A stretch of DNA of 29,458 nt from Aliarcobacter sp. (GTDB lineage: Bacteria; Campylobacterota; Campylobacteria; Campylobacterales; Arcobacteraceae), in the NCBI GenBank assembly GCA_023268955.1, contig JALRJW010000176.1, forward strand, positions 1 through 29,458, written 5' to 3'. How positions within the stretch are numbered: position 1 is the first letter of the stretch; each line of letters begins with the position of its first letter. The notes beneath the pieces are model-generated. The model saw nothing but the letters and a program-made list of their open reading frames with translations, was not told where the DNA came from and made no database searches. The translations under genes were made by a program, and so were the position numbers. Below, piece by piece: positions 1,618 to 4,779 of this stretch.

Positions 1618-3516
1618 ATGAGCACAAAAGATTTAAACAAAGTAATAGAACAACTTATCAAAGAGAATAAAGACTCTGTCCTAACTTATGAAAAAATCAT
1701 AAAAATTTTCCCAAAAGCTCCATCTATTGCACACATTAAAAAACTAATTGCATTAGTTCAATTGTATAACGTAACAGTTATTACATCTCAAGAACAAGCA
1801 AAAAGACTTAATGCAGAAGAAGCTAAAAAGAAAAGAGAAGCTAGAGAAAAAATGATTGAAAACGAAGATGATGTTTTCGATTTATTAAAAAGTAAAGAGC
1901 TTCTAGAATGGTCAAGATCTGATTCTCCTGTTAGAATGTACTTAAGAGAAATGGGTCAAATTCCATTACTTACAAAAGAAGAAGAGATTGAAATCTCGAA
2001 AAGAATTGAAATTGGTGAAGATATCATCTTAGATGCTATTTGTTATGTACCATATTTAATTGACTTTATTTTAGATTATAAAGAGCCTCTTGTAAATAGA
2101 GAAAGAAAAGTTAAAGAATTATTTAAAAACTTTGATGATGAAGATAGTGATGATGATAACGATGACGATAGTGATGATGATTCAAATGATGATGAAGAAT
2201 TAGATGAAGATGGTAATCCTATAGAGTTAGATGATGACGATTCTGATTCTAAAAATAAAAAAGTTAAAAAACTTGATAAAAGAGCATTAGCAATTATTGA
2301 AGGTTTTAAAAGTTTAGATAAAGCTAAAAAAGAGTGGGTTAAATATCTTGCTAAAGAGACAGCTGAATCAGACGAAGAGTTAGATCAAATTAAATTTAAT
2401 TTAAATACTGCATTCAAGAAAAAAATCTTAAAAGAAGCATTATTAGACTTAGGGCCAACTTCTAAACTTATTACAGAAATCGTAAAAGCTATGGAAACTG
2501 CATTAAAATCTGATAGTGGATTTGACCAAGAATTAAAAAGATTAGAGTACAAATTACCATTATTTAATGATACTTTATTAGCAAATCATGAAAAGATTTT
2601 AAATAATATTGTTAATTTATCTAAAGGTCAAATTACAACTATGGTTCCTGAAGCTACAATGGTTTCTACATATATGGAAATCAAAAAGTTATTCCAAACT
2701 AAAGAAGCTTCAGCAGGTGGATTCGACCTTGAACCACAAGAATTAAAAGACGTTTTAGAACAAATCAAAAGAGGTAAACAAATTACTGATCAAGCTAAAA
2801 CTAGAATGGCAAAATCTAACCTTAGACTTGTTGTATCAATTGCAAAAAGATATACAAACAGAGGTTTACCATTCTTAGATTTAATTCAAGAAGGTAATAT
2901 CGGTCTAATGAAAGCCGTTGATAAGTTTGAATATAAAAAAGGTTATAAATTCTCTACTTATGCAACGTGGTGGATTAGACAAGCAATTTCAAGAGCAATT
3001 GCAGACCAAGCAAGAACTATTAGAATCCCTATTCATATGATTGAAACAATTAATAGAATTAATAAAATCATTAGAAAAGGTATCCAAGAAAATGGTAAAG
3101 AACCAGATGTAGAAGAAATCGCAAAAGAAGTTGGTTTACCTGTTGATAAAGTTAAACAAGTAATTAAAATTACTAAAGAACCTGTATCACTTGAAGCACC
3201 AATTGGTTCAGATGAAGATGGTAAATTTGGAGATTTTGTTCCTGATGAAAAAGCTCCAACACCAGTTGACAATATCATGAAAGAGGATTTACAAGGTCAA
3301 ATCAATCAAATCTTAGCTCAATTAAATGAAAGAGAACAAGCTGTAATCAGAATGAGATTTGGACTAATGGATGATGCTTCTGATAGAACTTTAGAAGAGA
3401 TTGGTAAGGAACTTTCTGTAACAAGAGAGAGAGTTAGACAAATTGAATCAAGTGCTATTAAGAAATTAAAGCATCCAAAAGTTGGTAAAAACCTTAAAAA
3501 TTATGTAGAGAGCTAA
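1618..3516 (+). CDS. rpoD: RNA polymerase primary sigma factor sigma70
   Basis: Region 1.2 [12 protein letters not shown], acidic non-conserved region, region 2 [12 protein letters not shown]...[17 protein letters not shown]...[13 protein letters not shown], region 4 RTLEEIG...[10 protein letters not shown]. Confidence 0.99.
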
Positions 3517-3519
3517 TAT

Positions 3520-4200
3520 ATGCCTTTATTTGAAAAATGGGTAGATGTGGATTTAAATCCTGTTATTACTTTCACATCTTCTGGAAGAATTGCTTACTCA
3601 AATTCTGAAGCACAATTTTTATTAAGTAGAATAAGTCAAAAAGAACTTTTTGACTTATCTGTTCAATATGCTTCACAAACTTATGGTATTAATACATCTT
3701 ATATTGATTTACAATTAAAAAACTATACTTTTTATGCAATTACTGTTATGTATGAAAATGATGAAGAAATTCATATGAAACTTTACAAAAGTGCTACTGT
3801 AAAAAAAGACAAAAAATTAACGACATCTAATACTAACACAACAAATATATTTACTTTAGTTGATTTATCTATTTCTACAAATAAAACTAAATCTTCAATT
3901 AATTATGTGAAAAACTATGATCCTTCAATTCCAGAATTCAAATTAAATGCTAGTGCTTTTATAAAGGTTCTAAATCAAATTTTTAGTAGTTTTCATTCTA
4001 GTTCAACTTTATATTGTTCTATATTATTAAAAATTGGGGAATATATTAGAATTGAAGGTAAAAAATATCCACTGATATCAGTTGAAATTTCAGCAGATGA
4101 GAAATATTCTTTTGATGAATTAAGAACTAAAGAATTTGAACACTTTATTGTAATTTGTGAATTAAATAAGGTTACAATAGATTTACCTCTTATTTCTTAG
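3520..4200 (+). CDS. PAS-like domain + degenerate NtrB-type HATPase domain protein (probable pseudokinase)
   Basis: N-terminal PAS-like start (NPVITFTSSGRIAYSNSEAQFLL); C-terminal YDPSIPE...IKVLNQI...IEGKKYPL...IDLPL resembles the NtrB C-terminal domain; no H-box and no G-boxes. Starts 3 nt after the rpoD stop. Confidence 0.6.
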   Translation: MPLFEKWVDVDLNPVITFTSSGRIAYSNSEAQFLLSRISQKELFDLSVQYASQTYGINTSYIDLQLKNYTFYAITVMYENDEEIHMKLYKSATVKKDKKLTTSNTNTTNIFTLVDLSISTNKTKSSINYVKNYDPSIPEFKLNASAFIKVLNQIFSSFHSSSTLYCSILLKIGEYIRIEGKKYPLISVEISADEKYSFDELRTKEFEHFIVICELNKVTIDLPLIS

Positions 4201-4221
4201 TATAAATCTATTAAATAAAAC

Positions 4222-4247
4222 CAAAAGCTATTTTAATATAGCTTTTG
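4222..4247. terminator. Inverted repeat between converging operons, probable bidirectional terminator
   Basis: CAAAAGCTAT-tttaat-ATAGCTTTTG, perfect 10-bp stem overlapping the stop of the minus-strand gene at 4228. Confidence 0.55.
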
Positions 4248-4779
4248 AAACTAACACTCCAAGTGGAACTAATCCTATTCCAACTAAAAATGCAATTGGT
4301 AAAAATATTTGATTATTATTTAAAGCAAAAAAACTAAGTAGTAATGTTCCATATCCAACTATTCTGTATATTGATACAAAACTACCTGAAGATTTTAAAG
4401 CATTTTTAACAGATGCTGTTTTAACTTTGGATTTCTCTTCTTGAATAATTTCTTTGATTTTTTCAGGTGTTAAATCTTCTTCTTTAATCTCTTCATACTC
4501 AGAATATAAATCAAAAGGATCATCAATTTGATCAATTTTATCTCTATCTTCTTTTAACTCGCCAGCAGTTACATCAATATTTTCTAATCTTTTTTCAACA
4601 TTTCTTTTATATGATAAAAAAGTTGCTAGAGTTATAATTAAACTTGAAATAAAACCAAGTTGAGCGTTTAAAACCCAATATTTATCTTTTAAAATAAAAA
4701 GAACTATAACTAAAACAATATTTAGAAAAATAAAGAGTTTTGCATACCTTAAAACTAAAGGATTAATCTTCATCATCAT
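4228..4779 (-). CDS. Four-TM membrane protein, AtpI-like partner (start may be 4779, 4776 or 4773)
   Basis: Two N-terminal and two C-terminal hydrophobic helices around an acidic loop; overlaps the upstream AtpZ-like gene by 17 nt. Confidence 0.6.
   Translation of the reverse strand: MMMKINPLVLRYAKLFIFLNIVLVIVLFILKDKYWVLNAQLGFISSLIITLATFLSYKRNVEKRLENIDVTAGELKEDRDKIDQIDDPFDLYSEYEEIKEEDLTPEKIKEIIQEEKSKVKTASVKNALKSSGSFVSIYRIVGYGTLLLSFFALNNNQIFLPIAFLVGIGLVPLGVLVSKAILK

Follow-up and report, generated by a model that had tools for sequence, protein, structure and literature searches.

What does a small protein that resembles part of a sensor kinase do directly behind the gene for sigma-70, and on which protein does it act? 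The question arises in an Aliarcobacter sp. genome (G000), where a 226-aa gene that we call T (P0001) lies on the plus strand at positions 3520-4200 of the window, by which we mean the whole 29,458-nt stretch of DNA that was analysed (contig JALRJW010000176.1 of assembly GCA_023268955.1). A first-pass annotation of this DNA had described T as a PAS-like domain joined to a defunct NtrB-type kinase domain, and had put it forward as a candidate sensor linked to sigma-70. We describe here the gene, the protein and their relatives in the Campylobacterales, together with an NtrC-derived partner gene, termed c1.

T and rpoD at the Aliarcobacter locus

The open reading frame of T proved to be real and to stand right behind rpoD, as first annotated. 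Its ATG is located 3 nt past the rpoD stop codon (rpoD ends at 3516), and upstream of it is a purine run that is, by its sequence and place, a possible ribosome-binding site for the coupled translation of T. The features of the locus are as follows.

1618-3516, plus strand: rpoD (sigma-70, 632 aa), the first of two genes in the unit (ORF call)
3508-3512, plus strand: GAGAG purine run, 8-12 nt 5' of the T ATG and within the 3' end of rpoD (read from the sequence)
3520-4200, plus strand: T, NtrB-derived, 226 aa, stop codon included (ORF; 542 homologues; present in 149 of 201 genomes)
4221-4248, no strand assigned: hairpin with an 11-bp stem between the convergent genes T and 4228-4779, with a T-run on the minus-strand side only

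The genes on both flanks, leuD/leuB-like genes on the 5' side and a convergent membrane-protein gene (4228-4779) on the 3' side, are on the opposite strand, and rpoD and T therefore constitute a two-gene unit. The terminator that the two genes had been thought to share was confirmed only as a structure: the hairpin exists, and its T-run is on the side that serves the convergent minus-strand gene. It is at best a bidirectional stop and not clearly the terminator of rpoD.

Contigs identical to window positions 3520-3768 and 3534-3652 were present in two wastewater metatranscriptome runs, and the stretch 3820-4185 had no cover in four RNA runs. The rpoD/T junction was bridged by RNA-library contigs of relatives in two studies. 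These bridging contigs fit co-transcription of rpoD and T; a single transcript, or a level of expression, lies beyond what such contigs can tell.

The C-terminal 238 aa of RpoD gave one match at 81-98% identity in 197 of 201 genomes of the Campylobacterales. In RpoD, the non-conserved region holds a long insert of low complexity and acidic character at residues ~175-210 (window 2140-2250), made up of D, E, S and N.

Domain anatomy of the T protein

An AF2 model of T was built from 68 diverse family sequences (pLDDT 91.9) and replaced an earlier model from a shallow alignment, which was poor in the N-terminal half (pLDDT 66.6). The protein has two domains.

3520-3807, plus strand: PAS-like N-terminal domain, residues 1-96, with a conserved D-x-N-P...F...N..A motif (AF2 topology, alignment columns, hhalign)
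3826-4197, plus strand: degenerate histidine-kinase CA (Bergerat) domain, residues 103-226 (VIA, NCBIfam, hhalign, alignment columns)

The best structural match of the CA domain was the C-terminal domain of NtrB, 1R62 (VIA Z 13.9, rmsd 2.7 A over 117 residues), which led ThkA, ZraS, HK853 and RetS by less than 1 Z and so is tied with them, many other kinase CA domains scoring Z 12-13.7. Foldseek likewise matched the C-terminal half to kinase CA domains (E 7.7e-6). The top 50 structural matches were kinases; anti-sigma factors are absent from those 50, and a likeness to them may still exist. By sequence, the sole NCBIfam match of T was NR(II) NF008293 (E 6.6e-5, residues 122-156 on profile positions 213-247), at 22.3 bits far below the 240-bit family cut-off. 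Alignment by hhalign to E. coli NtrB, the reference sequence for which was taken from NC_000913, placed T residues 126-186 on NtrB 217-280 and paired DYDPSLPE, the helix after it and the long hairpin (GERYRL/KKYPLI), with weak profile similarity (E 0.002, probability 12-13%). This is exactly the stretch of NtrB that the first-pass annotation had relied on in calling the C-terminus NtrB-like, a call that the structure, the NCBIfam match and the alignment all uphold.

T has no DHp domain and no phospho-accepting His; between its domains are some 12 low-confidence residues (91-102, pLDDT ~63), the hhalign coverage is limited to NtrB 16-46 and 216-280, and HisKA had no Pfam match in T or in any of the 68 family members. 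The column aligned to N248 of NtrB, the N-box Asn, is variable across the family. The G1 and G2 boxes are absent, the residues after the hairpin reading SADEKYSFDELRTKEFEH instead of DNGPGI...GGTGLGL, and T is ~29 residues shorter than NtrB where the ATP lid and the G2 helix would sit. Alignment columns and model thus agree that the H-box/DHp region, the N-box Asn, the DxGxG and GxG motifs and the ATP lid have been lost, as was first noticed in the sequence.

The assignment of the N-terminal domain as PAS-like was retained in a weaker form. Six of its residues, D11, N13, P14, F18, N28 and A31, are nearly invariant and are the most conserved of the family, and the order of elements in the model (two strands, two helices, three to four strands) is that of a short PAS domain. 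A Pfam scan of T itself returned chance matches only; at E < 0.01, PAS matched 4 of the 68 family members and PAS_8 matched 1 of 68, and the hhalign match to NtrB PAS residues 16-46 was weak (E 3.5e-4, probability 37%). Nothing meaningful came from PDB sequence searches with T, with the family profile or with the N-domain profile.

As far as alignments and model can tell, T is most likely a non-catalytic descendant of NtrB which kept the CA fold and the PAS domain, lost the DHp/His and ATP-binding parts, and would have no capacity for phosphorylation. An anatomy without DHp and ATP motifs bears out the idea of a kinase-derived scaffold that acts through protein contact and not by phosphorelay.

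Distribution of the T family

A set of 5.8 billion proteins contained 542 homologues of T. A profile search of 1.84 billion representatives yielded 138 clusters at 50% identity, all of them 267 aa or shorter, with no full-length kinase or fused form of T among them. The homologues are annotated at source as "hypothetical protein", and in IMG as "nitrogen-specific signal transduction histidine kinase". Within the Campylobacterales, T was detected in 149 of 201 sampled genomes, and 60 of 76 genera are represented among these. Searches of the sampled genomes of families f11, f25, f26 and f3, and of genus g2 within the window's own family, gave no T. With few exceptions the listed matches have an open frame of full length, and 20 Arcobacter-type sequences share 92 invariant positions.

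In six genomes of family f16, the T profile gave an additional match of lower score (E ~1e-17 in the listed examples, such as G036:C6:23389-23940 and G111:C55:6183-6653). The one in G036 is ~3 kb from a PII gene (G036:C6:27059-27376).

T is found behind rpoD or beside c1

A survey of rpoD neighbourhoods revealed that the coupling of T to rpoD is both tight and wide. T lies behind rpoD in ~12 families (f1, f2, f4, f5, f14, f15, part of f17, f18 and f21-f24). Of 20 such loci that were fetched, representing at least 8 families, 19 had a spacing of -4 to +16 nt between the two genes. The two genes are far apart in f6, f8, f10, f12, f13 and f16, in most of f19, and in one genus each of f17 and the window's family.

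Where T is not at rpoD, it has another constant neighbor. In 17 of 20 such loci it directly adjoins c1, a gene for a protein of 220-260 aa, which precedes T on its strand in 14 (gap -23 to +5 nt) and is convergent in 3. This arrangement, often with overlapping genes, is seen in Nautiliaceae (f13, identified by exact match to Nautilia proteins) and in at least seven other families, and in many of these loci amtB (PF00909) and PII (PF00543) genes are near. In two f10 genomes (G010 and G048; loci L032 and L033), T is beside neither rpoD nor c1 and is part of a conserved block of unannotated genes, c1 being on a different contig.

A tree of T required two changes of gene order, with one possible; its backbone is weak, and the number and direction of moves were left unsettled. 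Because Nautiliaceae, many further families and one genus of the window's own family (G047) have T behind c1, a move of T from c1 to behind rpoD, making the rpoD placement the derived state, is the likelier course.

c1 is related to NtrC

Judged by its sequence, c1 is an NtrC descendant with a Walker-A AAA+ core and a Fis-type HTH. Alignment by hhalign placed c1 residues 1-241 on residues 140-468 of E. coli NtrC (probability 98%, E 2e-13), with no receiver domain and with the GAFTGA stretch deleted. The NCBIfam family with most members matching was TIGR01818 (ntrC), matched by 17 of 17 c1 members. HTH_8 is present, the Walker A motif G-x-x-G-x-GK is invariant, and conservation does not extend to the Walker B acidic pair.

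The c1 gene of G000 (C249:133-885) is behind a gene for a 285-aa membrane protein and a small ORF that, by the look of its sequence, may encode a NirD-type Rieske protein. In four complete genomes of the window's family, c1 is divergent from one or two amtB-PII pairs, and in three of the four it is then followed by glnD, encoding the PII uridylyltransferase. In these three loci (L061:7404-9947, L062:5879-8413 and L064:5772-8306) c1 overlaps the start of glnD (GlnD_UR_UTase, HD and ACT domains), which therefore places the NtrC-derived regulator and the PII-modifying enzyme in a common operon. In f15, f23, f4 and part of f17 (L065-L072), c1 is found in a tolQRAB-pal-ybgF ... fabD-mtnN cluster, with tol-pal-ybgF on one side of it and fabD, a CN-hydrolase gene and mtnN on the other, a setting that has no obvious nitrogen link.

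T and c1 occur together

The counts of T and c1 per family were almost identical across the 201 genomes, also where the two genes are unlinked. Neither gene was found in the sampled genomes of genus g2 (0/6), f3, f11 (0/14), f25 (0/6) and f26 (0/14), and nearly all other groups have both. All families with the pair encode PII, as do a few without it, and a PII gene is present in G000. With PII in every pair-bearing family, and amtB, PII and glnD near c1 in relatives, the link to PII that was first suggested on the strength of the NtrB likeness is plausible.

The first-pass annotation had also pointed to the reported lack of sigma-54 in Arcobacter butzleri. The 85% complete G000 assembly yielded neither a Sigma54_DBD nor a true sigma-54 activator. 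Scored by Sigma54_DBD, rpoN is present in many of the families that have the pair and absent from several others, and with the pair occurring in rpoN-positive and rpoN-negative families alike, loss of rpoN was rejected as the explanation of T.

The six genomes of genus g2 (G009, G031, G078, G092, G119 and G158), which are complete or near-complete, have neither T nor c1 and keep one PII gene. Three of the six were searched for rpoN, and none was found. Nitrogen control in this genus must be organised differently.

Predicted complex of T and c1

One prediction of a complex between the T and c1 proteins of G000 gave an ipSAE of 0.77 (runs 0.76, 0.77 and 0.78), versus 0.00 for the best of three controls. 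Among solved complexes 58 of 80 attained that mark, and among mismatched pairs 2 of 110 did; these counts hold only roughly here, our own alignments having been used. The runs agreed on 100% of contacts, and the partner pLDDT was at least 82. T residues 106-124 and 144-152 were placed against the N-terminal helix (10-27) and AAA+ residues 116-120 of c1. The two segments of T are the following.

3835-3891, plus strand: CA helix 1, residues 106-124, predicted c1 contact (complex prediction); its consensus NIxxLID is among the better conserved segments
3949-3975, plus strand: start of the N-box-equivalent helix, residues 144-152, second predicted c1 contact (complex prediction)

The prediction supports binding of T to c1. 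In NifL, the GHKL and DH domains hold the AAA+ domain of NifA (PMC12998190). A contact of this type, with the GHKL side on an NtrC-family AAA+ domain, is seen in the predicted complex of T and c1, and the model might echo the low-resolution NifL-NifA structure (PMC12998190), although the sequences are remote.

A palindromic box upstream of nitrogen genes

The intergenic regions around amtB, PII and c1 genes were inspected in three relatives, and TGTATA-N5-TATACA was present in 6 of 6. G000 has four exact copies, and three of these are 65-120 nt upstream of glnA, of ureD and of a gene for a Peripla_BP_5 (urea/amide-type) binding protein. Copies with one mismatch precede gltB and a molybdopterin oxidoreductase gene, the latter possibly encoding an assimilatory nitrate reductase. 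Enrichment of the box was considered and rejected: four exact copies are not unusual at 28.6% G+C, permuted half-sites giving a median of 1 and, in 8 of 60 cases, four or more. At one mismatch, G000 has 25 sites versus 18 for the control. The number of boxes is unremarkable, and the argument from them is therefore one of position. The window has no copy at up to one mismatch, so that rpoD-T is probably outside the control of the box.

The fourth exact copy (G000:C132:2022-2038, L074) is between a 363-aa gene with no Pfam match and prs, recognised by its ribose-phosphate pyrophosphokinase N-domain. No nitrogen gene is evident in this context.

A proposed binding switch for nitrogen assimilation

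On the basis of the domains of T and c1, their shared distribution, the gene neighbourhoods, the places where the boxes lie and the predicted complex, we propose that T and c1 are a phosphorelay-free NtrB/NtrC pair which controls nitrogen-assimilation genes in the manner of NifL-NifA, a reading that we hold to be fairly probable. T would grip the AAA+ core of c1 with two helices of its CA domain and thereby set c1 activity, as NifL holds NifA; here we infer both the actual binding and the sign of the regulation. The c1 protein would bind the TGTATA-N5-TATACA boxes before nitrogen-assimilation genes and would work with sigma-70 RNA polymerase. Nitrogen status would probably be signalled by GlnD and PII. 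The likeliest point of entry would be T, in the manner of PII acting on NtrB, or else the PAS domain of T. In this lineage the T gene would have moved from behind c1 to behind rpoD, where it would be translationally coupled and expressed at a housekeeping level independent of the nitrogen regulon. The rpoD linkage would then probably amount to constitutive expression of T. For a coupling that is long-conserved and tight, nothing stronger than this expression argument has come forward.

The contact of NtrB with PII involves the ATP-lid region, which is missing from T, and the PII step is therefore the weakest link in the proposal. One may instead suppose that T is a ligand or redox sensor that has no need of PII, its PAS domain binding a metabolite such as glutamine or 2-oxoglutarate, or a cofactor, and alone deciding the hold of T on c1. 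Both the deletion of the lid and the concentration of the family's most conserved residues (D11, N13, P14, F18, N28 and A31) in the PAS-like domain speak for this. The domain is however short, ~85 residues, with no cofactor motif recognised in it, and PII is found in every family that has the pair, with c1 co-located with PII, amtB and glnD. We regard a PII-free sensor as unlikely.

The position behind rpoD was the reason for viewing T as a sigma-70-linked sensor in the first place, one that would bind RpoD or RNA polymerase directly, be it in the way of an anti-sigma factor, as the GHKL proteins SpoIIAB and RsbW do with their sigma factors, or as a co-activator, and perhaps bridge c1 to sigma-70. 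The rpoD-T order has indeed been kept over a large evolutionary distance, in ~12 families and, for 19 of 20 loci, at a spacing of -4 to +16 nt, the junction is bridged by RNA contigs of relatives in two studies, and since c1 has no sigma-54 loop the T-c1 system must work with sigma-70. T is nevertheless remote from rpoD in Nautiliaceae and no fewer than seven further families, in which its coupling is to c1; its distribution tracks that of c1 and not that of the universal rpoD; its top 50 structural matches are kinases and not anti-sigma factors; and it is c1 that T is predicted to bind. Beyond gene order, RpoD or RNA polymerase as the target of T found no support, and we consider it quite unlikely.

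A version in which T is an adaptor between c1 and sigma-70 appears improbable to us. T would be made together with RpoD through coupled translation, would bind one or more regions of RpoD as well as c1, and would replace the sigma-54/GAFTGA route. Were this so, T would be a kinase-derived, sigma-70-specific co-activator that recruits the sigma-70 holoenzyme to nitrogen promoters.

It is very improbable that T is still active as an atypical kinase or ATP-binding protein with non-canonical motifs. Its Bergerat fold is intact, and some pseudokinase-like CA domains retain nucleotide binding, but the N-box Asn of T is not conserved, G1 and G2 are absent, ~29 residues of the lid and G2 helix are missing, no His-bearing DHp is present, and c1 has no receiver domain. 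That T is a decaying, functionless remnant is scarcely credible: all catalytic parts are lost, yet the gene is kept in 149 of 201 genomes, nearly always as a full-length open frame among the listed matches, with 92 invariant positions in 20 Arcobacter-type sequences and identical contigs in RNA libraries.

Comparison with known regulatory systems

Two-component systems are defined by His-to-Asp phosphotransfer. The proposed pair of T and c1 would be NtrB and NtrC stripped of the modules that carry the phosphate, and the two are still together in about three-quarters of the sampled Campylobacterales genomes. NtrB itself (NR(II), GlnL of E. coli) shares with T the order of PAS then CA, the DYDPSxPE before the N-box helix, the long hairpin with a (K/R)(K/R)Y turn, the best structural match (1R62) and a nitrogen-gene context with an NtrC-type partner, PII, amtB and glnD. 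It differs in its length (349 aa versus 226 aa for T) and in having the DHp/His region, the N, G1 and G2 boxes and the ATP lid, all missing from T, which would accordingly be unable to phosphorylate and whose partner c1 has no receiver domain.

The closest parallel in mechanism is NifL-NifA with GlnK of Azotobacter vinelandii and Klebsiella, in which a non-phosphorylating protein of PAS and GHKL domains contacts an NtrC-family AAA+ protein and PII provides the input (PMC12998190). NifL has two PAS domains, one of them with FAD, and a DH domain and ADP binding, whereas T has neither the DH domain nor nucleotide motifs for an ADP-binding GHKL domain. NifA is a sigma-54 activator of nif genes, whereas c1 has no GAFTGA and its proposed regulon is general nitrogen assimilation.

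Models for c1 are the GAFTGA-less NtrC proteins of Rhodobacter capsulatus and Caulobacter, along with VpsR, which have lost the sigma-54 loop and serve sigma-70 promoters; NtrCs of this kind act with sigma-70 (bioRxiv 10.1101/2023.06.06.543975). Unlike c1, all of these keep a receiver domain with its Asp site, and the two NtrCs keep a real NtrB kinase.

SpoIIAB and RsbW are likewise small Bergerat-fold proteins that are encoded beside a sigma-factor gene and act by protein contact, binding their sigma factor, but they have no PAS domain, they bind ATP and use it to phosphorylate a STAS anti-anti-sigma factor on Ser, and their genes precede that of an alternative sigma factor. The pseudokinases DivL and RetS, both among the structural matches of T, are derived from histidine kinases and signal by partner binding; they keep the DHp domain as an interaction surface, whereas T does not have one.

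Literature searches found no paper on the T-c1 pair in Campylobacterota. Many of the Campylobacterales that have the pair are sulfur-oxidising bacteria of vents, sediments and wastewater. If the proposal is right, T-c1 would be the general nitrogen regulator of this group and the second example, independent of NifL-NifA, in which a kinase has become a switch that works by binding. It would also be a clean system for studying how the PII signal is read when no phosphorylation takes place. The separation of the two genes, with T in the rpoD operon, indicates that the pair works when its genes are expressed separately, and it raises the question of whether the sigma-70 linkage is about expression only.

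A membrane-protein gene at the c1 locus

The 285-aa protein encoded directly before c1 has a soluble N-terminal part, a multi-pass membrane C-terminal part and no Pfam match. Its gene was found in G000 (C249:904-1761, L050), and of the four complete genomes inspected in the window's family three have it as well (L061:5781-6641, L062:4234-5097 and L064:4127-4990). It occupies the locus that T would have left, and the protein may be a further input module.
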